Shown: positions 16,458 to 49,487, numbered from the stretch's first letter. The stretch is DNA of 64,000 nt from Clostridia bacterium (GCA_028684195.1 JAQUGH010000001.1:19771-83770), one strand, 5' to 3'. The notes: generated from the letters alone by a model not told the origin. Translations and numbers: made by a program.

Positions 16458-16658
16458 ATGAACATTACAAAAGAAATGTCTATTACTGAAATTGTCCAAA
16501 AGTATCCTCAAAGTGCTGAGATACTGATGAATCATGGAATGGGCTGTGTAGGCTGTGCTGCTTCACATTTTGAAACCCTAGCTCAAGGTGCTAGTGCTCA
16601 TAACATTGATATCGATAGTCTTCTCACTGACCTAAACAATGCAGCTAACGAAGAATAA
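16458..16658 (+). CDS. DUF1858 / hybrid-cluster-protein-associated redox disulfide domain protein
   Basis: 66 aa. The MSITEIVQKYPQSAEILMNHGMGCVGC pattern matches my recollection of the small CxxC DUF1858 proteins. Confidence 0.6.
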   Translation: MNITKEMSITEIVQKYPQSAEILMNHGMGCVGCAASHFETLAQGASAHNIDIDSLLTDLNNAANEE

Positions 16659-16691: not shown

Positions 16692-16724
16692 CCTCGACAC
16701 ATTAAATTGTCGGGGCTCTTTTTT
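16692..16724 (+). terminator. Intrinsic terminator after the DUF1858 gene
   Basis: CCUCGACA-loop-UGUCGGGG hairpin followed by CUCUUUUUU. It lies between convergent genes. Confidence 0.7.
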
Positions 16725-16762: not shown

Positions 16763-18676
16763 TTATTTTAATTCTTCAAGTTTTATAAATACATTTTTCA
16801 TCTGTTCCTCTAATTTTTCTACAGAATCGTTCATCGTTTCTGTAACCTGCACAGTTTCTTCCGATAATTTTTTGACCTTCACCGCTTCCTTATTCTGCAC
16901 ATTTGTTTTATCAATAATATCTTCCACAAATGGCTTAATCTTCTTTAATTCCTCATTCGTCTTATCCGCAAGTTTTCTTATCTCCTCTGCCACAACAGCA
17001 AATCCTCTTCCCTTTTCCCCCGCTCTGGCAGCTTCAATTGCTGCATTGAGGGCAAGAAGATTTGTCTGATCAGCGACCTCACCAATTGTATTCACAATAG
17101 GAACAAGATTCTTTGTTTTAGTAACAACCTCACTAGATAATTGTTGAAATTTACATATATTGTCAATTATTACAGAATACTTTTCGAACGTAGCATCGGA
17201 GCTAGAAGATATTTCCTTAACATTATATGTTATTTCTGAAAAAATATCTGACACTTGACAAAGCATTTTTTTGATTTTATCGCCATTTTTCTCTGCTTCA
17301 ATGCTTTTTTCCTCATAAAGAATTTTATTATTTTCCGCTCTCATCATGGAATCTTGTATTATCTTACTCTCCCGCAACATCTCTTTTTCCCTATAAAGAT
17401 GACAATTGTTGGGCTTATTTAAACCATTAAAAATTGCCACAGCCATTTCATAACAACTGTTATATCCACATGAACCGCAGTTTCGCATATCTATTTCTGA
17501 TTCTTTATTCATATCAGAATATACCTTTTCTAATTCTGCAGGTGAAGGCCTTTGTATTTTGAAATTATCCGTAAGATCCTGATAATGTTTATAACTAAAA
17601 TCGCACTCTTTTATTACATTATTTATAAATTTACTTAATATTTTATTGTTCTTATTATTCTTTTCGTTGTTGTCTACACGTTCAGCTATCATGCCCTCAA
17701 TCTGATCTATAGACTTATTATGATTAATACATCCAGGCCCCATATTACATCCTTTTTCACAATTCAATATGTCAACCACTACAGGCAAATAAGGCTTATC
17801 TTCCTTAATACCTTTTTCCAAATCACTTAAATACTTATAAAAAACCAATGGTCCTTCTATTTTGGTTATTACCCTCTTTTTTGTTTGAGGATACCTATAT
17901 ATGTACGATTCTTTAAGACCACCTGGTGTTGAAAAGTTAGCCGCAACCTCAGCTTCCACTGGTCCATCGAACCTACCTTTCTCCAATTCATCAACATTAA
18001 TATTTTTTTCTCTGAACAGCTTCTCAATAGACTTATATGTAACATTAAATTTAATTATTTGACTATCTGCAAATTCACGTCTTTTTGCCAAACAAGGTGA
18101 AATAAAAGCCAAGGTATACTGCGGATACTTTGATTTTACATAAACCGCTATATCATGTACCGGGCTTCCACTGGGTGCTAAATGACCAATTAATTCAGGA
18201 TGTTTCAGCTCAATATATTTTACTATAGCCGGACAAGGTTGTGATATGACTGGTGTTTTAACTTTTCCAGATGCAATAGCTTCATGATAACAAGCAACAG
18301 TTATCTCTGCTCCCAAAGAAACGTCAAAGACTGCTTTTACCCCCACCTTTTTTAGTGCTGTAATAAGTTGCGGCAATTCAAAGTTACTATATGCAGAAGG
18401 TGCAACCAATGCTGCTACTTTCTCCCCTGATGATAAAGCCCTTTTAAATGCTTCTAAATCATCAATAGGGTACCTAGCACTTTTCTCTTCATTACCATCA
18501 TGAACAGTAATACAAGCCTCTATACAAGCTCCACAACCAATACATAATGAATCATTCAGCTTAACATATTCTCCACTTCCATCATTACAAAGCTTAACAG
18601 GACAAACCGTTATACATCTGTGACAATTGATGCAATTTTCTTCTCTAATACCAACTACTTTCACTAATTCTTTCAA
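16763..18676 (-). CDS. Soluble chemoreceptor: ferredoxin plus [FeFe]-hydrogenase-like sensory domain fused to a methyl-accepting chemotaxis signalling domain
   Basis: N-terminal CxxCxxCxxxCP motifs are present. The hydrogenase large-subunit-like motifs are [16 protein letters not shown] and [11 protein letters not shown], plus the [16 protein letters not shown] Fe-S motif. The C-terminal MCP hairpin tip reads [35 protein letters not shown]. No TM helix is seen. Confidence 0.8.
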
Positions 18677-18777
18677 TTTTTATTCTCCCCTTCCATCTAT
18701 AATTGATATACTTACTTATTTTTTTATTTATTCATTTTGAAATTTACGGATCCTTTGTTACCTAACACCGTACATAA

Positions 18778-20085
18778 TCACTTGTCTTTCTTTCTAATAG
18801 ATGGGGGCATCTTTTGTGATATTTCCAACATTCCTTCTGCCATCTCTGTTACTTTCTCTCTTAATTTAAATATGCAATCAACCTCATCTGCTTGTCCCCT
18901 TACAATATCTTCTGCCAAAGCTCGACAAGTAGGTGCACCACACGACCCACAATCTAACCCGGGCAAAAATTTTTCAATCACCTCAAGATTCTCCATTTTC
19001 TGCATAGCAATAGCAATATTATCATCCAGTTTTAAAACTTCAATTGGCTTTATTTTTTCCGTAAACATAAGCTCCTGCCAATCAGGATGCTTCGCTAATT
19101 CTTGCTGCTTGTCCACTTTATTTCGTGCCAACCAATCTATGCGAGCTTTTGCCATAAAAGGATTTTCTACAGTAAGCGGTCCGCCAACACAACCTCCTAC
19201 ACATGACAACGCTTCAATAAAATCTACTTCTTTTAACTTACCCATTACTACTTCTTCCAAAACCTTAGTCACATTTTCAACACCATCAACAGCAAGATAT
19301 CGAAGTCCTGAAATGAATCTGCTTTCTCCACCGCTAATTGCCCATCCCACACCTGCTCCAGAGGATTTTTGCAAATCAGGTGCCTTTTTAATATCTTTTA
19401 TTTTACTTAAAAGTAGTCCATATATTTCGGATATCCCAATGACACCATCAACAGCAGAGTTTTTCATACCAACCGGATTTTTTACCCCTGTTACCTTGGC
19501 AGCACAAGGTGAAATGAAAAATACGCCAACTTTTTCCGAAGGATATCCTGCCTTACTCATCTCTTCCTTAGCTATCTTAGCTGCCGTTTCCATAGGTGAC
19601 TTAATTGGAACTATATTATTTATAAGTTCAGGGAATTTTACCTGAATTAATTTTACTACTGCCGGACAAGCCGAAGAAATAACCGGTCTGGGAAAATCCT
19701 TATTACTAAGAAAATCATTTACTGCACGAGTAACCAGTTCCGCACCCAATGCTACTTCCCATACCTTATAAAACCCCAATTCTAACAAACCTGCAATAAT
19801 ATGATTCACTGTAAATTTAGTTCCAAACTGACTATACAAACTCGGAGCTGGAAGAGCAATCGGATATTCATATCCCTTGATTTTTTCCAAAGGATCAGTT
19901 ATGGCTAATTTTGCATGATATGGACAGATCCTTATACACTCGCCACAATCAATACACCGTTCATCGATTATTTTAGCCTTCCCATCACGAACACGAATAG
20001 CCTCCGTAGGACAATGTTTTATACAATTTGTACAACCCCTGCATAACTCTTCATCAAGAGTAACCGAGTGAAAATATGAATCCAC
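18778..20085 (-). CDS. Sensory-type [FeFe]-hydrogenase-like protein (HydS/HfsB-like, no PAS domain seen)
   Basis: Two ferredoxin motifs are CRGCTNCIKHCP and CIDCGECIRICP. H-cluster-like motifs are SSACPAVV, FISPCAAK and LSCVGGCVGGP. A C-terminal CGSCGAPTCRALAEDI Fe-S motif is also present. Confidence 0.8.
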   Translation of the reverse strand: MDSYFHSVTLDEELCRGCTNCIKHCPTEAIRVRDGKAKIIDERCIDCGECIRICPYHAKLAITDPLEKIKGYEYPIALPAPSLYSQFGTKFTVNHIIAGLLELGFYKVWEVALGAELVTRAVNDFLSNKDFPRPVISSACPAVVKLIQVKFPELINNIVPIKSPMETAAKIAKEEMSKAGYPSEKVGVFFISPCAAKVTGVKNPVGMKNSAVDGVIGISEIYGLLLSKIKDIKKAPDLQKSSGAGVGWAISGGESRFISGLRYLAVDGVENVTKVLEEVVMGKLKEVDFIEALSCVGGCVGGPLTVENPFMAKARIDWLARNKVDKQQELAKHPDWQELMFTEKIKPIEVLKLDDNIAIAMQKMENLEVIEKFLPGLDCGSCGAPTCRALAEDIVRGQADEVDCIFKLREKVTEMAEGMLEISQKMPPSIRKKDK

Positions 20086-20104
20086 CTAATTTCACCCCTT
20101 CATT

Positions 20105-20148
20105 AACAATAGTTTAACAATAGTTTAACAATGGTTCAACAATCGTTC
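20105..20148. repeat. Four tandem 11-bp units AACAAT(A/G/C)GTT(T/C)
   Basis: The units are AACAATAGTTT, AACAATAGTTT, AACAATGGTTC and AACAATCGTTC, read directly. They fill the 64-bp spacer between the kinase-like gene and the hydrogenase-like gene. The same motif array recurs at 49430-49487. Confidence 0.9.
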
Positions 20149-20149
20149 C

Positions 20150-20581
20150 CTACCTAATAATCATCTTAATAGTAGTACCCTTCCCTTTTTGAGATTCTAT
20201 ATTAAATGTATCAGCACAATTTCGCATATTAGGTAACCCCATTCCGGCGCCAAACCCCATTTCCCTAATGCTCTCTGGTGCTGTAGAATATCCTTCTTGC
20301 ATAGCCTTATCTATATTTGGTATACCAGGTCCTGTATCAGTTATTGAGATGCACACTACATCTGGTTTGATTTCAGCTTTTATCACTCCTCCCCAGGAGT
20401 GAATAACCAAATTCATTTCTGCTTCATAAGTAGCAATCGCTACACGCCTTATAAGACTTGAGGGAAACCCTAGCTTCATTAACTTATTTTTTATCTTTGA
20501 ACTAGCCTCTCCAGCGCAGGTGAAATTACCCTTCTCCACAAAATAACTCATGACCATTGGTTTAACTATATTATCTCTCAT
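20150..20581 (-). CDS. RsbW/SpoIIAB-like anti-sigma-type serine kinase (GHKL ATPase domain only)
   Basis: 143 aa. HATPase_c motifs are EAEMNLVIHS (N box), TDTGPGIPN (G1) and GFGAGMGLPN (G2). There is no HisKA domain. Confidence 0.75.
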   Translation of the reverse strand: MRDNIVKPMVMSYFVEKGNFTCAGEASSKIKNKLMKLGFPSSLIRRVAIATYEAEMNLVIHSWGGVIKAEIKPDVVCISITDTGPGIPNIDKAMQEGYSTAPESIREMGFGAGMGLPNMRNCADTFNIESQKGKGTTIKMIIR

Positions 20582-20730
20582 AATTTTAAATCACCATTTT
20601 ATCAAAATTTCCTAATTATTATTTTCAACAACTATTCTCAATAGCATTAACTTAATAACTATCCATACTTATTAAGTCAATAATTTTATTATATATATCT
20701 TTTTGGAGAAATACAAACCTAATCCGTTAT

Positions 20731-21432
20731 TTAACTGCACTTTACATTTTTGATCATGTACCCAACGCCACTACAAGTTACAATATATTCAGGATTTCCA
20801 GCATCACGCTCAATTTTTTGTCTTAATCTTCCCACACTCACTCTTAAATAATGGGTACAATCCTTATATTCACTTCCCCAAATTTCTTCCAATAGTTCAT
20901 CGTGATGTACTACTTTACCTGCATTATTAGCTAAATAAGTTAAAAGTTTAAATTCAGTAGGAGTTAAATGTGCTACATGTCCATCAACCGATACCTGTCT
21001 TTGTGCTAGATCAATTAAAAGACTGCCCAGTTTAATTCTATCAGAAGAATTTTGCGAAAGGTTGTTTTTAACCCTTCGCAAAACAGCATTAACTCGTGCC
21101 AATAATTCTTCTACTGCAAAAGGTTTTGAAACATAATCGTCAGCCCCTGCATTCAAACCTTCTACAGCATCCTGCATATCACCTTTTGCCGTAATCATAA
21201 TGATAGGTACATCTGATTTCTTTCTAATACGTCTACACACCTCTAATCCATCTAATTCCGGAAGCATAATGTCCAGAATTATTACATCCAGTTTTGATGT
21301 TTCAAATTTAGACAAAGCTTCTAAACCTGTCATAGCAGATACCACTTCATATCCACTAGCCCTGAGATTTGCTCTTATAAAGCGTAAAATATTTGACTCA
21401 TCATCTACTACTAAAGCTACTAGCTTGTTCAT
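20731..21432 (-). CDS. OmpR-family DNA-binding response regulator
   Basis: 233 aa. The receiver domain has VVDDE...DVIILDIMLP...ITAKG. The C-terminal winged helix has LTPTEFKLLTYLA...GVGY. There is a 4-bp overlap with the upstream kinase gene. Confidence 0.9.
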   Translation of the reverse strand: MNKLVALVVDDESNILRFIRANLRASGYEVVSAMTGLEALSKFETSKLDVIILDIMLPELDGLEVCRRIRKKSDVPIIMITAKGDMQDAVEGLNAGADDYVSKPFAVEELLARVNAVLRRVKNNLSQNSSDRIKLGSLLIDLAQRQVSVDGHVAHLTPTEFKLLTYLANNAGKVVHHDELLEEIWGSEYKDCTHYLRVSVGRLRQKIERDAGNPEYIVTCSGVGYMIKNVKCS

Positions 21433-24161
21433 TTTTCTTCCCCCTCCACATTTTTACATGGTAAAGTAAAATAAAATTCACTGCCTTTGCCTAAACTACT
21501 TTCAACCCAAATAGAACCCCCATGATTCTTTATTATCCATTTTGTAATAGCAAGCCCGACGCCACTACCATTAATGCGTAATGCCATTTTATTTTCAACA
21601 CGATAAAATCTTTTAAAAATATCTTTATGATATTGAGGTGCTATCCCTATGCCTTGATCTATTACTCCCACCTTTATCATATTTTCTTTTTTTAAATATC
21701 CTAATTTTACATAAATAACCTTCTCTGCGGAAGAATATTTTACTGCATTTTCCAATAGGTTATTAAGAACATGTTCTATCCTCTGTTCATCCATCACAAT
21801 AATAGGTAGATCCCCTCTATCATCTACCTTGAAAATATTTTTAGGATACCTATCCCTTAAACGTTTTAAAACCCTAGCCGTAATTTTACTAATGTTAGCA
21901 TTATGTAGATTTAGTTTAAAAACTCCAGCCTCTATCTTAGAAATATCCATAATATTATCTATTAAATATTCTAATCTTTTACTTTCCTCAATAATAGCTT
22001 TAATAAAATCCGTCTTTTCATCCTCAGTCCAAGTTACACCCTGTCTTAAAAGAGAGTCCGCACTCCCATAGATCGTAGTCAATGGAGAACGAAATTCATG
22101 CGATACAGTAGATAATATAGAATCCTTTAAAATATTCACTTGTCTTTCTCGTGTTACATCACGCATAACATATCCATAACCAATAAAAGTCTTACCCGTC
22201 ATTACAGGAAACCCCTGTACCTTATAATAATTAGTATTATCCTTATATGTGACTGAACCCTTCCCATATTCATATGCCTGTTGCTCTTTATAACATTTTT
22301 TCATCTCATCCCAAGGTAGCTCTATTAATGTTTCAGGATCTATATAGTTACGAAATTCTGATATGTATAAATCCGCAGTCCATTCTGATTCTTTCAAATG
22401 AAATATTTTTAGTAATAATGGATTTACATATATTATTTTCCCCCTCGTATCAAGTATAATAATCCCCTCATGCATACCATTAATCACAGCAAGCAATGTA
22501 TGATGTTCCTCATTTACTACATTAAAAAGAGCCAAATTGCTTATAACTACCCCAAGCTGATTAGCAACAGCTTGCAATACAATAATCTCTTGATCTTTAA
22601 AACGATTTGCGACACGACTCGTTAAAGTCACCGCACCTAATACAACATCTTGGTATCTAATAGGCACACTAACAAGAGATCTCATATCACTCCAACAAAG
22701 CGCAAGTGGAACATTTTTTTCATTTTTCTGCAAATCATCAATTACAACAATATCTCTTTTTTCCATAGCCAATTTACTGTACCAGCCAGTACATTCCGTA
22801 TAAATTATCTTCTCAGTCCGTGGATAGTTTGCACCCCAAATCGTATGTACAAGTTTTTCATTATCTGTCCTATGAAGATAGATATTAGCTAATTCTACTT
22901 CAAACAACTTCATTACTTCATTTAAAACTAAATTTATAACATCGGTTAAATTACAAGTCTCATTTACAGAAGAAACAACAGCATATAATGTAGCCATCTC
23001 TTTATCTTTCATAACAAGTTCCCTTGTTCGCTCTCTAACTCGCCTTTCAAGATTATTTCCATGCTTTTTAAGCATGGAATCTACTTTTTCTAGATTATCT
23101 GCCATAGAATTAAATCCTTCACCCAACTTATTTATTTCCGGAAGTATATTATTTCTTGCAAATTCAACCCGATACGCTAAATTTCCTATTGCCAATTCTG
23201 AATTAGCCTTATTAATCTGAGACAAAGGAATAACTATTTTATTAATTAACGATTTTTTAATAGAGAATATAACAAATACTCCTAGCAACAATATCCCAAA
23301 AGATATACCCATTGCCTTATACAAAGGTAGCAACACCTCGTAACGCGGTGCAGTCACCCACATTGTCCAACCTAAATTATTTAATTTTAAATAACAAGCT
23401 GTTTCACCAAGTTTAGATAACGGAGAAAAATAATTTAATGAACCTTCCGATGATTTCTTTAAAGCATTTAAAATTGGATAATTCTCAGGAAAAGAATCTA
23501 CCTTTCTATCATAAGAATAGATCACTCGATTATTGCCATCTACTAAAACAAAATGTCCTAAAGATGCCATATCCCCTTTCTTTAATAATCTATATATTTC
23601 ATCCATATCTAAAGTACCTATAACATACCCACAATACCTTCCTTCCTTAGTTTTTATCGGTTTAGCTACAAAAATTATTTCATTTCCGTTATGCTCTCGT
23701 ATAACCTGACTTACTATAGATGTCTCTGCTCTTTTAAATTTACTTGTAACATTATTCCATAGACATCTATCCTTTTCTAAAATATAATACGCCGTTATTT
23801 CATCATATTTAGAGCTAAACTGACAAGCTTCACAATTTAAAAATATATCAACAAAGCCCTCATAATGCTCCGCATATTTTTCAATCATATCCTTCAGTTT
23901 TGTACCTTTTAAATTACATTGAGAATTATAAAACTGTCCTGCCTGTTCACTTATATTATTCACAGCAAAAATATACTTGTTAATATAACGTGTTAATTCT
24001 TCTGCTTGTTCTACAACAGCAGAAGAATAATTTGCTTTTAGCTCTTTCTCTTTTTCTATTAAATCAAAAGTAACATAAATACCCAGTATAGCAAGCGGTA
24101 TTATGGCTAATGCTACTATAATCTTCGTATAAAAAGAAAGCGTCAATTTTTTTTTCAGCAT
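21429..24161 (-). CDS. Multi-domain sensor histidine kinase (periplasmic Cache-like, HAMP, GAF, PAS, HisKA, HATPase)
   Basis: 910 aa with two TM helices flanking a ~250-aa extracytoplasmic domain. The HAMP region includes LAIGNLAYRVE and the H-box is VSHEFRSPLTTI. The N/G boxes are LENAVKYS, DQGIGI and GSGVGLAI. Confidence 0.85.
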   Translation of the reverse strand: MLKKKLTLSFYTKIIVALAIIPLAILGIYVTFDLIEKEKELKANYSSAVVEQAEELTRYINKYIFAVNNISEQAGQFYNSQCNLKGTKLKDMIEKYAEHYEGFVDIFLNCEACQFSSKYDEITAYYILEKDRCLWNNVTSKFKRAETSIVSQVIREHNGNEIIFVAKPIKTKEGRYCGYVIGTLDMDEIYRLLKKGDMASLGHFVLVDGNNRVIYSYDRKVDSFPENYPILNALKKSSEGSLNYFSPLSKLGETACYLKLNNLGWTMWVTAPRYEVLLPLYKAMGISFGILLLGVFVIFSIKKSLINKIVIPLSQINKANSELAIGNLAYRVEFARNNILPEINKLGEGFNSMADNLEKVDSMLKKHGNNLERRVRERTRELVMKDKEMATLYAVVSSVNETCNLTDVINLVLNEVMKLFEVELANIYLHRTDNEKLVHTIWGANYPRTEKIIYTECTGWYSKLAMEKRDIVVIDDLQKNEKNVPLALCWSDMRSLVSVPIRYQDVVLGAVTLTSRVANRFKDQEIIVLQAVANQLGVVISNLALFNVVNEEHHTLLAVINGMHEGIIILDTRGKIIYVNPLLLKIFHLKESEWTADLYISEFRNYIDPETLIELPWDEMKKCYKEQQAYEYGKGSVTYKDNTNYYKVQGFPVMTGKTFIGYGYVMRDVTRERQVNILKDSILSTVSHEFRSPLTTIYGSADSLLRQGVTWTEDEKTDFIKAIIEESKRLEYLIDNIMDISKIEAGVFKLNLHNANISKITARVLKRLRDRYPKNIFKVDDRGDLPIIVMDEQRIEHVLNNLLENAVKYSSAEKVIYVKLGYLKKENMIKVGVIDQGIGIAPQYHKDIFKRFYRVENKMALRINGSGVGLAITKWIIKNHGGSIWVESSLGKGSEFYFTLPCKNVEGEEK

Positions 24162-24184: not shown

Positions 24185-25807
24185 TCATTTTCCCCATTTT
24201 CTTAAAAACGACCCTCTTGCTCTTTCAACTACTATGCTCTTATCAGTATCCATTTCTTTTAGTATTATCATCGCTTTATCTGAACCTATGGTACCAAGAG
24301 CTTTTACAGCACGAAACCGTACCTTTGCCAACCGATCTTTTAACATTGGAATTAAATATGGCAGTGCCGGTTCTCCTATCATTTGTAAAGCATCGCAAAC
24401 AACAGTCGCTTTTTTTACACTTTTCTTCAATTCAACTATCAAAAGAGGTATGCTCGAGGTACTCTCAATTAATCCTAATCCAATTATTCCAGCTTCCCAC
24501 AAATTATTAGATGAATTATGCAATAAAGAGATAAACCAAGGCTCCATTTTTTTCTTGTATCTTTTACTTAAAACATAAATATATTCATCAAGTGAACTTT
24601 CTTCTAATTGTTCAATATTGCTAATAATAATTGGTATATCTTCTTCAGTTCCCCATTTTACTAAATTTGTAATTTCATTAGAAGTCAATTCTCTTTTAGA
24701 AATTTCCCCTTTTTCTTTCCTTTTCTTAACCAAAGAATACACATTACTTTCTGAACCTGCAGATCTTTTATGTTTTAATATTTTATTATAAAAGCTAACA
24801 TATTTTTCATGGGGAAGGTAATTCTTTTGAAACAGCACGTTACATACGCAATAAAATTTATCGTCTAAATTTAAACGACAAGCTTTTCCACCACTAATAG
24901 CTAAAAGCGGTACCCCTTCCTCTTTTAATGGAGATACCCATAAAGTTTGACGAAACTCTGGTATTTCTTTCAAAACATCTTGCATGATTTTTTTTACAGA
25001 ATCATGTTCTACTCCATTAATTAAATCACCTGAAAGATATATACTATAACACTCAATTGGTACATCATCTAACTCAAGAACAACTTTTCTTCCTATCCAT
25101 ACAATAATGAAATCATTCACAATTTCAGAGCATTTGCTATTTTGAATACGAGCTACCGCATCCAAAATATGTCTTGATACTACTTCTTCTGACTCCTCCA
25201 CGTTACCTATTCTTTTTAAGATTGCTGTATAATCCAAATAAAAACCCCAAGCCTTTTGGAGAAGTTGTCTTTCTGTAATATTATCATCATTTATACTATT
25301 TTTATGGAATTTAGGCAAAAGCAACTGCCTTTCTCTTTTTAAATATCTTTCAACATTATATAATAAAGTTTGAGAAAGTGAAGAAACTTTATATCCACCG
25401 CATACGTATTCTCCTTCAAAAGAATAAATAAAATATATATTTACCTGCTTATTTTCTATCAACCTGCTTAAAATATAAAATTCCATAGGCTTAGCTACAT
25501 TAAAATTCAAAGAATAAACCATATCTTTATTTCCGTAATAAGAAAATTTTAGATCTAAACAACCATTTTTACTTAACTTCATATCGCAATGCTCCTGAGC
25601 TCCTAAAAGATTCTCTATGCTCTCCTCTGAAAATAATAAAAAATAAAAATCAATTTCCCCTAACCAATTTATATTAAAGCAAGCCTTTGCCCCTTTTTTA
25701 AAAGCATTAATAATATCGCAATGTCCTAACGAGTTAAGATAAGGTTCTTCTTGGTTAGGTGGCACAGTAAATGTATAGATTTTAAACTTATTATTACGCT
25801 GATTCAT
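24185..25807 (-). CDS. Hypothetical protein with C-terminal HEAT/PBS-lyase-like repeats, first gene of the kinase-regulator operon
   Basis: 540 aa. No motif was recognised in the first ~400 aa. The C-terminus (EPALPYLIPMLKDRLAKVRFRAVKALGTIGSDKA) looks like HEAT_2/PBS lyase repeats. A 23-bp gap separates it from the kinase start. Confidence 0.5.
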   Translation of the reverse strand: MNQRNNKFKIYTFTVPPNQEEPYLNSLGHCDIINAFKKGAKACFNINWLGEIDFYFLLFSEESIENLLGAQEHCDMKLSKNGCLDLKFSYYGNKDMVYSLNFNVAKPMEFYILSRLIENKQVNIYFIYSFEGEYVCGGYKVSSLSQTLLYNVERYLKRERQLLLPKFHKNSINDDNITERQLLQKAWGFYLDYTAILKRIGNVEESEEVVSRHILDAVARIQNSKCSEIVNDFIIVWIGRKVVLELDDVPIECYSIYLSGDLINGVEHDSVKKIMQDVLKEIPEFRQTLWVSPLKEEGVPLLAISGGKACRLNLDDKFYCVCNVLFQKNYLPHEKYVSFYNKILKHKRSAGSESNVYSLVKKRKEKGEISKRELTSNEITNLVKWGTEEDIPIIISNIEQLEESSLDEYIYVLSKRYKKKMEPWFISLLHNSSNNLWEAGIIGLGLIESTSSIPLLIVELKKSVKKATVVCDALQMIGEPALPYLIPMLKDRLAKVRFRAVKALGTIGSDKAMIILKEMDTDKSIVVERARGSFLRKWGK

Positions 25808-26027: not shown

Positions 26028-26978
26028 TTATAGTCCCTCTTTTTCAAAATATGTTTCACTCTCCTGGATTTTTAACTCCTTTATTATTAACGCAAAAGCT
26101 AAACTCAACAAACTAATACCAGCCAAAATATTTAAATAAACAACACCTATGCGATACCACGACATCAATAAAAGAATAACACTGTACATAATATAGCTTC
26201 CAAAATGCTTTCTTTCTAAAATTTCTCTTTTTATTAAATTCAACCTTTTTTGTCTCTTCGCTTTTTTGTGATTAATTATATCTTCCACTTCTGATAAAGA
26301 CGGAAAAAGAAAAGTGTTCTTTAATAAATATATCAATTTATCACTATTATATAATCTAAGATCTATATCATATCTTTGTTTCAAATTCATCGCATTATCT
26401 CCAAATTCTCCATTTGTAAAAACCCGTACTTGCTGTATTCCTTCTTGAATACATCTTCTAATAACACTCATCAAGTCTTTTGTTGCTACCATATCTTCCC
26501 CTGTTACCTCTAAGTAGATAACCGCTAATTTTTTGTAATTTAATATTCCTTCTAACATCCCCTCATTTGTTTTTATATGGGTCGCTAACTTTTTTTTCTC
26601 AATTTCTTTTCCTAGTAACATTAATATTTTATCGTCTTGAACTTTTTCTACTCTCTTCCAAAATTCTTTTTCTGCGATTTTTTTATAGCAATTTTTTTTA
26701 AGTTGCTTATTTTCTTTTTTTTGTTCAAAATATCTGAATATGATAATTACAATAGCAATGATAAGAACTCCCCACAAAGCTACTCGCATTGTAGAGGACT
26801 TCCACACTATTACTAACGATAAAAAAGTAAACAATACAGTATTTTGAAATAAACAACTTGCTGAGGAAACACAGGTACTCTGTCTTCTATAATATTCCTT
26901 TAATAGCTTTTGTTCTTGCCTTTTACCCCAACTGGTTTTTATCTTTTTAACAATATCTGTATATGGCACAGTGATCAC
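26028..26978 (-). CDS. Membrane protein with a central Mrr_cat-like (restriction-endonuclease-fold) domain
   Basis: 316 aa with TM helices near both ends. The central segment LAVIYLEVTGEDMVATKDLMSVIRRCIQEGIQQVRVFTNGEFGDNAMNL...LYNSDKLIYLL resembles the Mrr catalytic-fold layout. The assignment is tentative. Confidence 0.4.
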   Translation of the reverse strand: MITVPYTDIVKKIKTSWGKRQEQKLLKEYYRRQSTCVSSASCLFQNTVLFTFLSLVIVWKSSTMRVALWGVLIIAIVIIIFRYFEQKKENKQLKKNCYKKIAEKEFWKRVEKVQDDKILMLLGKEIEKKKLATHIKTNEGMLEGILNYKKLAVIYLEVTGEDMVATKDLMSVIRRCIQEGIQQVRVFTNGEFGDNAMNLKQRYDIDLRLYNSDKLIYLLKNTFLFPSLSEVEDIINHKKAKRQKRLNLIKREILERKHFGSYIMYSVILLLMSWYRIGVVYLNILAGISLLSLAFALIIKELKIQESETYFEKEGL

Positions 26979-32280: not shown

Positions 32281-33143
32281 AAAATCACGGGGACAGAAAA
32301 TCACGGGGACAGGTACCTTGATTTACGCTTTTAACGCTAAACTATAATTAACACCTGTAATCCTTGCTATTTGCCTTATTGATACGCCCTTAATACCTTT
32401 TATCTTCTTTACTATTTCGTCTCTTTTCTCTTTTTCAAAGCCTTGTATCTCACTGACTCTTTTTACTCCCGTAATACTTTTAATCAGCTTTCTTGCTTCA
32501 GTATCATTAATTTTTTTGCTTACTTCGTATTCTAAGCATTTATCTTCATTTTTTTCGTTGCTAAAAACAATAAATCTTGGGATAGCAACCATTTTATCTT
32601 CCGAAAAAATTTCTAGTGCTAAGTCAACATCAACTATTTTACCTGCATTTAAATATTCGTTATAGCTACTCCATTTGTATTCTTCAAGCTTTTTTATCAT
32701 ATTTGCTTTTCTCGGATTTTGATGTATATACCTTAATACTGTTAAAAAATAGCTATCATCTTCAACTGTTTCACTTTTAAATCTCTCTTGAAAAAGATGT
32801 CCATATCTACAATACTTCCTATTATAGTAATACACATAGCTTGAACTTATCCTTTTTATAATTTGCGAAATATCTTCTTGTACTTCTTTCATTAATAGGT
32901 GGACATGGTTACTCATTAAGCAATATGCATAAATTTTACATCCACTTTTTTCTTTATATATCGCAAGTGTTTTAATGAACTTTTGTCGATCTTGATCATC
33001 TTCAAATAAGTCTTGTTGATTGATTCCTCTAAACATTACATGGTATATTCCGCTCTCGCTTTTTTCTCTTGCTGTTCTAGCCATTTTCTCACCCCAAAAG
33101 CATTATACCATATTTTCATTAAGAATCAAGGTACCTGTCCCCG
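32281..33143 (-). mobile_element. HUH-transposase (IS200/RAYT-like) element bounded by 17-bp perfect inverted repeats
   Basis: CGGGGACAGGTACCTTG (32304-32320) and its exact reverse complement CAAGGTACCTGTCCCCG (33127-33143) flank the transposase gene. The left end also carries a tandem 16-mer, AAAATCACGGGGACAG x2 (32281-32312). Confidence 0.7.
32323..33084 (-). CDS. IS200/IS605-family Y1 (HUH) transposase, REP-associated tyrosine transposase-like, with C-terminal HTH
   Basis: 253 aa. It has the GIYHVMFRG start, the HUH motif SNHVHLL and the catalytic Tyr region LRYIHQNP. The C-terminal segment GVSIRQIARITGVNYSLALKA is HTH-like. Confidence 0.85.
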   Translation of the reverse strand: MARTAREKSESGIYHVMFRGINQQDLFEDDQDRQKFIKTLAIYKEKSGCKIYAYCLMSNHVHLLMKEVQEDISQIIKRISSSYVYYYNRKYCRYGHLFQERFKSETVEDDSYFLTVLRYIHQNPRKANMIKKLEEYKWSSYNEYLNAGKIVDVDLALEIFSEDKMVAIPRFIVFSNEKNEDKCLEYEVSKKINDTEARKLIKSITGVKRVSEIQGFEKEKRDEIVKKIKGIKGVSIRQIARITGVNYSLALKA

Positions 33144-45347: not shown

Positions 45348-45923
45348 TCATATAAACAAATTATCAGAACGTCTATACCATACAACTAATAAAAATATAG
45401 GCAAGATTAAAGCAATAACCAAAGTTAATTTCCACTGAATAGTAACTAAGATACTTAGTGATCCTATTATTGTCAAGGTGGATATAAAAACATCTTCAGG
45501 ACCATGATGAGCAAGCTCAGTTATATCAAATAAATCTGCTGTCAATCTACTCATTAGTTGACCTGTACGGTTTTTATCAAAGTATCCATAAGACAATTCC
45601 TGCATATGTTGAAATAAATCGCTTCTTATATCTGCTTCTACTAATACACCAAAAGAGTGACCATAGTAGGTTATTATATAGTAGAAAAAAGCTCTTAATG
45701 TATAGGCAATTAGCATAATCACCATAATAGTTATAAAAGTTTTATAAGCATTAATGGGTAGTAGCTCATATAGAGAATAACGAGTTATTGCTGGAAATGA
45801 TAAGTCAATAACTGCAATTAAGAATGCACATGACATATCTAACATAAATAAATTTTTGTGTGGTTTAAAATATGAGAAGAATATTGAAACTAGAGATCTT
45901 TTTTGAAATTCTTTTGTATCCAT
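45348..45923 (-). pseudogene. Truncated ABC exporter (transmembrane-domain half only, no ATPase domain)
   Basis: The 191-aa ORF matches the N-terminal ABC_membrane region of MsbA-type exporters (RTGQLMSRLTADL...). It stops after about 4 TM helices, and no nucleotide-binding domain follows. Confidence 0.7.
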
Positions 45924-46419
45924 TTTTGGTATTTTCCTTTCTTTTATGCGTCTTAGTTTGAGATATTTAGCCTTTGTGATTAAAAAAGCTCTTTTTTTTA
46001 TTTTTAAGAATAATTACTTCCCTGTCTATATTGTTCAAAGTCCACTACTAGCTTAGCTCCTACATTCCCAACTGTAGATAAAACTACACTGCTACGATGA
46101 TTTCCATATTCATTTTTAGTGCTTTTTATAACTGCAAAACAATTTTCACATTTTTCCTTATCACTATTAAATTAATAAATTATTCTTATTCCTTGATTTA
46201 TTTAGCTCATTTAACCCTTTGATTAATATATTTCCATTCCTTTTCAAAGCGCTTAATTGTTCGTTTTTTTTTGCCCTGTTTTTTCATATGTTACTTTATA
46301 CTATCATTTGATTAATTAATCTCTAAAAATTATACCCCAATACAGCATCTAAAAAGAATATAAAAAAAGCACAGTAGCCAAAACCACTGTGAATAAACTT
46401 CACAAACAGGTACTGTTCT

Positions 46420-46620
46420 TTAGTCACTAGGGTTTATTACTTTTGTTAATTTACCCTTCAATATCCCTTTGCTTTTCCCAATTACTTCAACTAGAACATC
46501 TTCCCCTTTTAAAGTTTCTGATACAAAAACTACTTGTCCATCTATCCTGCCAACACCTGCTCCATCGTGAGCATATCCTGTAATTGTCACTTTATAAGTC
46601 TTTTTATTATCTCCTATCAC
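46420..46620 (-). pseudogene. Relic of a RumA/RlmD-type 23S rRNA (uracil-C5)-methyltransferase: TRAM domain only
   Basis: The 66 aa contain GYAHDGAGVGRIDGQVVFVSETLKGEDVLVEV, a TRAM domain, ending in ...INPSD-stop. The codons after the stop still read RTVPVCEVYSQ, resembling the Fe-S Cys region of RumA. Similarity then ends at a terminator-like hairpin. Confidence 0.6.
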
Positions 46621-46810
46621 GTTGCTTTTCCCCTTTACTATTTTACTATTTACTCTATTTACTCTATTTACTTAAAATAGTTAACCTAAGCTATAAATTT
46701 TCACAATCCAATTACACCAACAAATAAACTGTTTATAAGATTAACTATCAAGAGAGAGCACAGAAGAACCGTCCCTTTGTGTCTCCTTCATTATTGTACT
46801 CAAAAGATTA

Positions 46811-46950
46811 CTACATGAGGAGCTGTCCCATCTACAACAGCGACACCCAATGTGGAAATAGCAACTCCATCTAAAAAATCATTACTTGATGAATATCATT
46901 CTTACTCTTATTCAGAAAAAGTGAAACTTCATTCAGCTTGAATCTGAATA
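46811..46950 (-). pseudogene. Degenerate duplicate of the 5' end and upstream region of the P-loop ATPase gene at 44006-45133
   Basis: 46811-46895 aligns by eye, with few mismatches, to 44849-44945 (CTACATG.GGAGCTGTCCCATCTACAACAGCGACACCCAATGTGG.AATAGCAACTCCATC...). 46926-46950 aligns to 45153-45178 (CTTCATTCA.C..GAATCTGAAT). About 200 bp is deleted in between. Confidence 0.75.
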
Positions 46951-46978
46951 ACTGACCAACATAAGCCACTAAAATAGT

Positions 46979-47862: not shown

Positions 47863-49440
47863 ATGTCACTAGAAAGTTGTATCAACAACATTTTACAAAG
47901 GTCTGAGGTGAAATCTAATTTATCCATTCCTGCACTAATGGAAGCAGCCATACGCCGAGGGGAGGGTATTCTCACAAATAAAGGCTCACTACGCGTAACT
48001 ACAGGAAAATATACAGGTCGATCCCCCGATGACAAATTCTTTGTTCGGGACAAAATGAGTGAAAACGTCATAAATTGGTGCAACATAAACAGACCAATGT
48101 CCCCGCAAAATTATCAATTGCTATTTGAAGATATCACGAATTATTTAATGAATCAAGAGGTTTTTGTTTTTGATGGGTATGCAGGTGCAGATTCACATCA
48201 TCGTTTGAAACTTCGTATTATTAATGACCAAGCATGGCAAAATATGTTTTGTCATCAACTTTTTATTCGACCAACTGCTGAAGAACTTGTTGATTTTTTC
48301 CCAGACTACCATATCATCGCAGCACCAGGATTTAAGGCAAATCCGCAAAAACATGGTACTAACTCGGAGGCTGCTATAGTTGTCAACCTAACAGAAAAAA
48401 CTATTCTTATCGCAGGTGCATCTTATGCCGGAGAAATTAAAAAGTCCGTGTTCTCTCTTGTCAATTATGTACTACCTATTAAGAACGTTCTGTCAATGCA
48501 CTGTTCTGCTAACGTAGATTCCGCAGGTAATTCCGCACTGTTTTTTGGACTATCCGGAACTGGTAAGACTACACTTTCAGCCGATCCTAAAAGGCAACTA
48601 ATAGGCGATGATGAACATGGATGGTCTAATGCTGGTATATTTAACATCGAAGGGGGTTGTTATGCCAAGAGTATTGGTCTTAGCGCACTCGATGAACCTC
48701 AAATTTATGGGGCTATTCGCTTTGGTACAGTTCTTGAGAACGTTTCTATAAATAAGAATACTCGTGAAGTTGATTTTTCTAATGGAGATATTACTGAAAA
48801 CACCAGGGCAGCTTACCCTCTTAATTACATACCTAATGCTTTAATACCCAGCATAGCCGGTCACCCAAAAGTGATATTTTTCTTAACGGCTGACGCCTTT
48901 GGTGTACTTCCTCCTATTGCTTCACTTAACATAGAACAAGCAATGTATCATTTTCTTTCCGGATATACAAGTAAATTGGCAGGAACTGAGAGAGGAATAA
49001 AAGAACCACAGGCTACTTTTTCTGAATGCTTTGGTTCTCCATTTCTTCCTTTACCTCCAATCAAATATGCAAATTTATTAGGTGAAAAAATAAGTGAGTT
49101 TGGAACGCAAGTGTATTTGTTAAATACCGGTTGGACTGGAGGTTCTTACGGAGTTGGTCACAGATTTAAAATACCACATACTCGCACTATTCTCACGGCA
49201 GCCTTAGAAGGAACTTTGAAAAATATTCCAACTCATAAAGATCCTATATTTGGTTTTGAAGTTCCAGAATTTTGTCCCGGTGTACCAAAAGAAATCTTTA
49301 CTCCCCAAAAAACTTGGTTACATCCAGAAGATTATCCGGTTCAAGCATTAAAGTTAGCTACCCTATTTAGAAAGAACTTTACAAAATTCAAGGATATTCC
49401 TGAAGGAATTTCAAATGCTTCACCCATCATTAAACAATAG
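47863..49440 (+). CDS. pckA: Phosphoenolpyruvate carboxykinase (ATP)
   Basis: 525 aa. It has the kinase-1a motif GLSGTGKTTLS, plus GDDEHGW and NIEGGCYAK. Confidence 0.95.
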   Translation: MSLESCINNILQRSEVKSNLSIPALMEAAIRRGEGILTNKGSLRVTTGKYTGRSPDDKFFVRDKMSENVINWCNINRPMSPQNYQLLFEDITNYLMNQEVFVFDGYAGADSHHRLKLRIINDQAWQNMFCHQLFIRPTAEELVDFFPDYHIIAAPGFKANPQKHGTNSEAAIVVNLTEKTILIAGASYAGEIKKSVFSLVNYVLPIKNVLSMHCSANVDSAGNSALFFGLSGTGKTTLSADPKRQLIGDDEHGWSNAGIFNIEGGCYAKSIGLSALDEPQIYGAIRFGTVLENVSINKNTREVDFSNGDITENTRAAYPLNYIPNALIPSIAGHPKVIFFLTADAFGVLPPIASLNIEQAMYHFLSGYTSKLAGTERGIKEPQATFSECFGSPFLPLPPIKYANLLGEKISEFGTQVYLLNTGWTGGSYGVGHRFKIPHTRTILTAALEGTLKNIPTHKDPIFGFEVPEFCPGVPKEIFTPQKTWLHPEDYPVQALKLATLFRKNFTKFKDIPEGISNASPIIKQ

Positions 49441-49487
49441 TTAAACGATCGTTAAACAATTGTTAAACAGTGGTTAAACAATCGTTT
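49430..49487. repeat. Five tandem 11-bp units (TT)AAACAATNGTT-type; same motif as 20105-20148
   Basis: The units are AACAATAGTTA, AACGATCGTTA, AACAATTGTTA, AACAGTGGTTA and AACAATCGTTT. The array starts in the last codons of pckA and ends 3 bp before the -35 box of the tRNA promoter. Confidence 0.9.

Follow-up and report, generated by a model that had tools for sequence, protein, structure and literature searches.

A locus for two distinct putative H2 sensors on the [FeFe]-hydrogenase fold in an uncultured Clostridia bacterium

Introduction

Among the putatively sensory [FeFe]-hydrogenase-like proteins, TamHydS from Thermoanaerobacter mathranii and TmHydS from Thermotoga maritima are the sole members that have been studied, both as isolated enzymes; signalling of H2 by such proteins, and a route for the signal out of the H-domain, are so far putative. 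TamHydS binds the H-cluster, shows a low turnover and a high affinity for H2, and is encoded next to a histidine-kinase-like ATPase (PMC8163306). It represents group D (M2e), which Land et al. describe by two N-terminal clusters, an H-domain, a C-terminal Cx2Cx4Cx16C motif, no PAS domain, the loss of C299 and a histidine-kinase-like ATPase gene alongside; in TamHydS, M353 is replaced by Ser and M497 by Leu (PMC8163306). TmHydS, a member of group C (M2f), also binds the H-cluster and turns over slowly (PMC10055695, PMC8163306). HydDB further lists as putative sensors a histidine-kinase-linked (C1), a chemotactic (C2) and a phosphatase-linked (C3) type, and for C2 proposes H2 sensing via methyl-accepting chemotaxis proteins (MCPs) (PMC5037454). 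Here we compare with these systems a locus from an uncultured anaerobic Clostridia bacterium, in which genes for a small kinase (i), a TamHydS-like protein (ii) and an MCP-fused protein (iii) follow one another on a 64-kb stretch of DNA (GCA_028684195.1, JAQUGH010000001.1:19771-83770; hereafter the window, with positions counted from its first nucleotide). The related loci used for comparison are numbered L003-L017. An exact match at the protein level occurs on JAQVRX010000038, a 17.8-kb contig of the metagenome-assembled genome GCA_028700825.1.

A first-pass annotation of the window had described three minus-strand genes of 143, 435 and 637 amino acids (aa) here. All three were confirmed, as were the peptide motifs quoted from their translations and, by Pfam, the domains named (Fer4, Fe_hyd_lg_C, PF04060 and MCPsignal):

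20150-20581, minus strand: (i), 143 aa, small GHKL ATPase/kinase of the HATPase_c_2 family
18778-20085, minus strand: (ii), 435 aa, predicted group D (M2e) putative sensory [FeFe]-hydrogenase
16763-18676, minus strand: (iii), 637 aa, cytoplasmic, HydDB C2-type putative chemoreceptor for H2 (or redox)

The locus probably encodes two putative H2 sensors that share the [FeFe]-hydrogenase fold but are independent of each other and distinct in evolution. Both proteins belong to catalogued kinds, and the example adds no principle beyond the predictions of HydDB and the group D literature. The MCP-fused kind is experimentally uncharacterised, and the earlier remark that chemoreceptor-fused forms have been predicted from genome surveys but are not known to be characterised biochemically agrees with the HydDB entry for group C2 (PMC5037454).

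Results

Protein (ii) and its kinase partner

The domain content of (ii) closely follows that of TamHydS. By Pfam it contains two Fer4 domains, Fe_hyd_lg_C (8.9e-42) and FeS (PF04060, 3.4e-13) and no PAS domain, and the C-terminal motif DCGSCGAPTC-x16-C is located at residues 378-404. In an alignment with the Desulfovibrio [FeFe]-hydrogenase (DdH), its motifs SSACP, ISPCAAK and ALSCVGGC lie opposite TSCCP, IMPCIAK and YMACPGGC, respectively. The protein is 55% identical to the Thermoanaerobacter protein P0191 (435 aa), which agrees with the characterised TamHydS at 19 of 19 published residues in the published numbering (residues listed from PMC8163306 and PMC13104023). Eighteen of these 19 are retained in (ii), the exception being S384, which is an Ala. 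The retained residues include S249, E252, D265 and E289 of the alternative proton path, R30, R32, R42, E392 and D393 of the interdomain salt bridges, and D378 and D403, the Asp residues that flank the C-terminal cluster by preceding the first and last Cys of its Cx2Cx4Cx16C motif. Length, domain order and the replacements C299 to Ala, M353 to Ser and M497 to Leu are likewise those of TamHydS.

Every feature by which Land et al. describe group D was found in (ii) by Pfam, the DdH alignment and column statistics, and among 120 group D homologues the C299 position is Ala in 97%, the M353 position Ser or Thr in 100% and the M497 position Leu in 92%. As judged from its sequence, (ii) is a group D (M2e) [FeFe]-hydrogenase and an orthologue of the TamHydS type. 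The previous comparison with sensory-type homologues is thus upheld, but the assignment of (ii) to group C, together with Thermotoga HydS and hfsB, is not, since the protein falls into group D and has no PAS domain. The bifurcating group A HydABC that typically accompanies such a protein is absent, with no other Fe_hyd_lg_C gene and no Complex1_51K or 2Fe-2S_thioredx gene in the window.

The kinase gene (i) lies 64 bp upstream of (ii), and its product matches HATPase_c and HATPase_c_2 (6.7e-09) in Pfam, with intact N (EAEMN), G1 (DTGPG) and G2 (GFGAGMG) boxes. This supports the described pairing of (ii) with a small kinase of the GHKL type, here from the HATPase_c_2 (anti-sigma kinase) family. 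The kinase is 52% identical to the one preceding P0191 in Thermoanaerobacter, and the kinase/group D pairing is also found in Caldicoprobacter and in five further relatives (see below). The (i)/(ii) pair is therefore orthologous to the TamHydS-type pair, and (i) is, by homology, the conserved partner of a group D HydS. Experimental work on the kinase partner of group D proteins was not found in the literature.

The proposal that (i) acts in partner-switching phosphorylation is not supported. The best NCBIfam model is SpoIIAB (spIIAB) at 61.9 bits against a cut-off of 135, the RsbW model reaches 18.3 bits against a cut-off of 145, and genes for a STAS antagonist, a PP2C phosphatase or a sigma factor are absent both from the window (Pfam, open reading frames (ORFs) of at least 100 aa) and from the related loci, including those of Thermoanaerobacter and Caldicoprobacter. 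In the latter two the gene order is DRTGG-kinase-HydS-DRTGG-PHP, immediately upstream of genes for a bifurcating HydABC. DRTGG, PHP and HydABC genes were not found within the 64-kb window, where, unlike the TamHydS-type pair, (i) and (ii) are placed between an OmpR-type regulator and the MCP-fused sensor.

The MCP-fused protein (iii)

Protein (iii) starts with a TTG codon preceded by AAGGGGAG, a start consistent with the N-termini of 20 orthologues. Pfam finds two Fer4 domains, Fe_hyd_lg_C (1.2e-31, residues 86-314), FeS (PF04060, residues 398-425) and MCPsignal (2e-30, residues 513-635), and the C-terminal Cx2Cx4Cx16C motif is formed by C400, C403, C408 and C425. The protein thus consists of a ferredoxin domain with two [4Fe-4S] clusters, the H-domain, the C-terminal Fe-S motif, a helical linker of about 40 residues and a short MCP hairpin. 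The fusion to an MCP signalling domain reported earlier is borne out by this Pfam match and by a 74-bit match to Tsr, in which the hairpin tip at residues 548-553 corresponds almost residue for residue. The tip, which in chemoreceptors binds CheA/CheW, is invariant in 21 orthologues of (iii). The AlphaFold model has a mean pLDDT (predicted local distance difference test) of 74.8, with most of the sensor part at about 75-95, and a fold search of the PDB with the model returned only [FeFe]-hydrogenases as top matches (DdH, template-modelling (TM) score 0.66, root-mean-square deviation 3.6 Å). PDB matches of (iii) comprise both Tsr and [FeFe]-hydrogenases. In the model, a continuous helix of residues 426-491 begins directly after C425, the last Fe-S ligand, and leads into the hairpin, which has its tip at about 551-553 and a C-terminal arm of about 12 heptads.

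The nearest relatives of (iii) are about 20 full-length MCP fusions from metagenomes (61-74% identity), followed by histidine kinases of about 700 aa and PAS/sigma-54 activators of about 900 aa from Syntrophomonadaceae. The first approximately 440 residues of the Syntrophomonadaceae proteins are 55-60% identical to the sensor module of (iii) and share the motif NCxxCGYNSC...NGLNK..NC, while their outputs differ, being HisKA/HATPase_c or PAS with sigma-54 AAA+ instead of an MCP hairpin. MCP fusions 37% identical to (iii) over the full length occur in metagenome-assembled genomes of Spirochaetia.

An exhaustive HMMER search with the module of (iii) alone gave 566 clusters (50% identity) at E<=1e-30. 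Each of the best 150 of the 566 contains the module, in nearly every case right at the N-terminus, and the total lengths range from 446 to 1629 aa. Pfam analysis of 50 evenly spaced representatives from these best 150 clusters gave MCPsignal as the commonest output (24 of 50), followed by HATPase_c (16), HisKA (14), Response_reg (12), PAS_9 (12), Hpt (6), SpoIIE/PP2C (3), a nucleotide cyclase (1) and CheX (1). The module is evidently reused widely as an input for MCP, histidine kinase, sigma-54 activator, PP2C and cyclase outputs. These outputs match the HydDB types C1, C2 and C3, and the family census would place (iii) itself in C2; as in C2, a sensory-type H-domain with its ligands kept and the relay Cys lost shares one polypeptide with MCPsignal. 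Protein (iii) differs from group C as defined in reviews, where a PAS domain is the hallmark of group C/M2f (PMC11216029): by Pfam it has none after the C-terminal cluster, and in the census PAS occurs in 12 of the 50.

One relative of the module of (iii) is the histidine kinase P0067 of Syntrophomonas wolfei, at 59% identity. In the S. wolfei genome (L012, CP000448, at about 1.18 Mb) its gene is followed by one for a response regulator with an HD-GYP domain (HD_5), which suggests c-di-GMP turnover as the output of this kinase-fused relative. The S. wolfei protein Swol_1040, which may or may not be the same protein as P0067, has been described as a histidine kinase that combines Fe-only-hydrogenase-like with ferredoxin-like domains; it may regulate H2 production and was detected solely when the cells grew syntrophically on butyrate (PMC4324140).

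As a receptor, (iii) resembles Aer2, HemAT and the minimal receptor Tm14 of Thermotoga, which are likewise cytoplasmic, lack a transmembrane segment and have a helical MCP hairpin with a canonical tip, and 31cj (Aer) and 3g67 are among its PDB matches. In Aer2 and HemAT a cofactor-binding sensor also precedes the hairpin, but this is a PAS or globin haem domain, in contrast to the multi-cluster hydrogenase module of about 425 residues in (iii). Unlike these soluble chemoreceptors, (iii) has no HAMP domain and no detectable methylation-site consensus. HAMP and PAS domains and transmembrane segments are all lacking in (iii).

Conservation of the H-cluster ligands and pocket

The H-cluster cysteines of both proteins occupy homologous positions, as the first-pass annotation held: the alignments of DdH with (ii) and of (ii) with (iii) are in register at the three H-cluster motifs, and (ii) and (iii) also at the C-terminal four-Cys motif. 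In an alignment of 240 sequences the eight Cys residues of the ferredoxin domain and the four of the H-cluster reach 100% conservation among complete sequences; for the four C-terminal Cys the value is 97-100%. The Lys that corresponds to K358 of CpI is likewise at 100%, and together with the AP(S/T) and SP motifs the figures are 89-100% across all clades. In the CpI structure these residues contact the [2Fe] ligands, the AP(S/T) and SP motifs by hydrogen bonds.

The proton-relay Cys is lost in both proteins, as first noted, and is replaced by Ala in (ii) and by Pro in (iii). At this C299 position Pro is found in 81-97% of the MCP-, histidine kinase- and enhancer-binding protein (EBP)-fused groups, against the Ala of group D, while both clades have Ser or Thr at the M353 position and Leu at the M497 position. 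Pro at the relay position has been noted in about 10% of HydDB sensory sequences (PMC10055695). TmHydS shares the core of two [4Fe-4S] clusters, H-domain and C-terminal four-Cys cluster and the loss of the relay Cys, but has Ala, Gly and Ser at C299, M353 and M497 and a PAS output, whereas (ii) has Ala, Ser and Leu and no fused output and (iii) has Pro, Ser and Leu and an MCP output. The alignment columns show a pattern of clade-specific purifying selection on the pocket residues.

A local tandem duplication, which the word paralogues in the first-pass annotation implied, was considered as the origin of (ii) and (iii) and rejected: the two are 26% identical, their clade-fixed pocket signatures differ, and the group-D-specific residues are absent from (iii). 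The proteins therefore represent two old, distinct sensor lineages.

Gene order in related loci

The neighbouring genes that take part in the comparison with other loci are as follows:

16458-16658, plus strand: DUF1858 protein of 66 aa with a GCVGC motif, convergent to (iii)
20731-21432, minus strand: OmpR-type regulator, overlapping the kinase gene of the adjacent two-component system
21429-24161, minus strand: dCache-GAF-PAS-HisKA-HATPase_c kinase of the adjacent two-component system (as a whole 20731-24161)

In five related metagenome-assembled genomes (L003, L013, L014, L015 and L017) a cassette is found in the order histidine kinase-response regulator-CheW-kinase-group D-MCP fusion-DUF1858 (convergent)-DUF1015, with cheW located between the OmpR-type regulator and the kinase (e.g. 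7579-8037 in L003). Counting L004, cheW is present in six related loci, and this recurrence in the same cassette indirectly strengthens the link of the (iii) fusion to chemotaxis. The fusion of L004 and L005 is accompanied by CheW but has no kinase/group D pair; that of the HGW-12 lineage is found by itself, with thioredoxin and CsoR genes next to it. Since other relatives thus carry the fusion without the pair, the two sensors are evidently separable units. The DUF1858 gene keeps its position in six related loci and is replaced by the thioredoxin gene in the HGW-12 lineage; the DUF1858 protein may or may not be a functional member of the system.

A protein of 158-161 aa without Pfam domains is encoded upstream of the fusion in L004 (9418-9894), where it replaces the kinase/group D pair, and in L014 (7254-7736), where it stands between the group D and fusion genes; it is absent from the window. 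The L004 gene (158 aa) was considered as a diverged kinase, which was rejected as it has neither similarity to the kinase nor a Pfam match.

The flanking housekeeping genes (DUF1015, GNAT, DnaB/DnaI and MraZ) are collinear among the relatives too, and the conserved adjacency, that of the two-component system included, is therefore no proof of coupling. The suggested hub with the adjacent dCache-GAF-PAS kinase and OmpR regulator, for which synteny is the sole evidence, is unsupported for the same reason.

Proposed function and alternative explanations

In the proposed mechanism, protein (ii) would, by homology to TamHydS, carry a complete H-cluster, show slow H2 turnover by way of an alternative Glu/Ser/Asp proton path and respond to H2 with a conformational change, a state presumably read by the dedicated GHKL kinase (i). 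In (iii), the sensor module with Pro at the relay position is joined to the short MCP hairpin by what the model predicts to be a continuous helix; when H2 altered the redox state or conformation at the H-cluster or the C-terminal cluster, this helix would move and thereby modulate a CheW/CheA array, resulting in taxis along H2 gradients. Here we infer the occupancy of the H-cluster, H2 as the signal, the direction and route of its transmission and a target for the kinase.

Several observations weigh against this explanation. The four cysteines are present in Nar1-type proteins too, and their retention is thus not decisive by itself. Binding of the H-cluster by (iii) would be an extrapolation, as no experimental work on MCP-fused hydrogenase-like receptors was found in the literature; work on H2 sensors of treponemes (Ballor et al. 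2012) is cited in PMC12483993. Neither the maturase genes hydE, hydF and hydG nor any of cheA, cheW, cheY, cheR and cheB was found by Pfam among the ORFs of 100 aa or more in the 64 kb; with CheW as the query, tblastn over the whole window was negative as well, and the counterpart of the cassette cheW is here a 149-bp gap (20582-20730), so that this lineage is without it. The kinase (i) has no sigma or STAS partner in the window. For adaptation by CheR/CheB, the methylation consensus [ASTG][ASTG]xx[EQ][EQ]xx[ASTG][ASTG] has no match in the whole of (iii), nor does a relaxed pattern match within the MCP part. Confidence in the model is low over the MCP region (pLDDT 50-68), which is to be expected when a dimeric coiled coil is modelled as a monomer. 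Finally, the C-terminal cluster of TamHydS is not reduced by H2 (PMC13104023), which makes signalling via the redox state of this cluster doubtful for the group D protein.

It is unlikely, though of the alternatives the one that survives best, that one or both proteins sense the cellular redox state, by way of the ferredoxin pool and the two N-terminal [4Fe-4S] clusters (energy taxis), or O2, CO or NO in place of H2, the H-domain containing the H-cluster or just its [4Fe-4S] part. Each protein has four predicted Fe-S sites, with the ferredoxin-like domain at the surface-exposed N-terminus; a gene for a small redox protein, either DUF1858 with a CxxC motif or thioredoxin, is kept in convergent orientation to the fusion gene; TamHydS has an unusual reactivity with CO and O2 (PMC8163306); and the literature continues to call groups C and D putatively sensory (PMC8924675). 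On the other hand, a plain Fe-S redox sensor would need none of the [2Fe]-only contacts (K358, AP(S/T) and SP) that are conserved at 89-100%, and both TmHydS and TamHydS bind the H-cluster and react with H2 (PMC8163306, PMC10055695).

Rather improbable is the explanation that (ii) is merely a slow catalytic hydrogenase, (i) an unrelated ATPase, and the adjacency of (ii) and (iii) inherited synteny without coupling. TamHydS does catalyse H+/H2 interconversion (PMC8163306), the collinearity of the whole region, housekeeping genes included, means that adjacency need not reflect coupling, and neither L004 nor the HGW-12 lineage has a kinase/group D pair beside its fusion. However, the turnover of TamHydS is about a thousand-fold below that of group A enzymes (PMC11803613), and the kinase and the group D protein stay together in distant members of the Firmicutes and have diverged to a similar degree (52% and 55% identity), which argues for a functional pair.

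An extension of the two-sensor explanation, which we regard as distinctly improbable, is that in this Clostridia/Peptococcia lineage the group D HydS and its kinase were recruited from the control of a hydrogenase operon into a chemosensory cassette (response regulator-CheW-kinase-HydS-MCP fusion), acting there on the MCP-fused sensor or on CheW, for example with H2-dependent Ser/Thr phosphorylation as a substitute for the missing methylation-based adaptation. If true, the locus would represent a two-sensor H2-taxis device with separate channels for detection and for gain or adaptation.

Very improbable is a Nar1/NARF-like role in Fe-S handling or as a scaffold, with an H-domain that binds only a [4Fe-4S] cluster and no [2Fe] subcluster, as the shared cysteines and the maturase genes not found in the window might suggest: the reading is disfavoured by the conserved [2Fe]-pocket residues, by bacterial hydrogenases as the nearest structural matches, by [FeFe]-hydrogenase families as the best NCBIfam models for both (ii) and (iii), albeit with scores below the curated cut-offs, and by the 55% identity of (ii) to a protein of the TamHydS type, TamHydS itself taking up the [2Fe] cofactor (PMC8163306).

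MCP-fused forms offer the most direct signalling read-out, as control of the CheA kinase or as behaviour, and the census indicates MCP as the commonest output type in the sensor family. The present locus and its cheW-bearing versions in relatives are compact candidates with sensor and output on one polypeptide, and (i) and (ii) constitute a two-gene pair of sensor and kinase that lies apart from any hydrogenase operon. For syntrophic and fermentative anaerobes, H2 taxis would be of ecological importance.

Transcription unit and other features of the window

Two non-coding features belong to the immediate locus:

20086-20149, minus strand: spacer between (i) and (ii), containing the ribosome-binding site of (ii) and a tandem array of four 11-bp units, GTTAAACnATn
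16692-16715, bidirectional: terminator-like hairpin that closes the (i)-(ii)-(iii) unit as well as the DUF1858 gene convergent to it

As no terminator-like site was seen in the intergenic gaps between (i), (ii) and (iii), co-transcription of the three genes is possible. Rfam and tRNA scans gave nothing relevant at the locus. The GTTAAACnATn unit occurs at two sites in the window, in four copies at 20103-20147 and in about five copies at 49430-49485, the latter directly upstream of a TTGACA/TAAGAT promoter-like pair before the gene for tRNA-Leu(GAG). The helical-turn phasing of the units suggests a protein-binding array. The repeat was considered as a component of the sensor system and not adopted, the loci of the relatives being without it.

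Elsewhere in the window, a gene for an IS200-type Y1 transposase lies at 32323-33084 on the minus strand, between an RNase E/G gene and rplU. In the region 45348-46978, an ORF of 191 aa, possibly a truncated transporter pseudogene, spans only part of an ABC_membrane domain, and the sequence of about 1 kb that follows has no ORF of 100 aa or longer. At 24185-25807 on the minus strand, directly upstream of the kinase of the two-component system, a 540-aa protein with C-terminal HEAT repeats is encoded, beside a 316-aa ORF without a Pfam match (26028-26978, minus strand). The HEAT-repeat protein is partly conserved in the relatives, at 39-43% identity.

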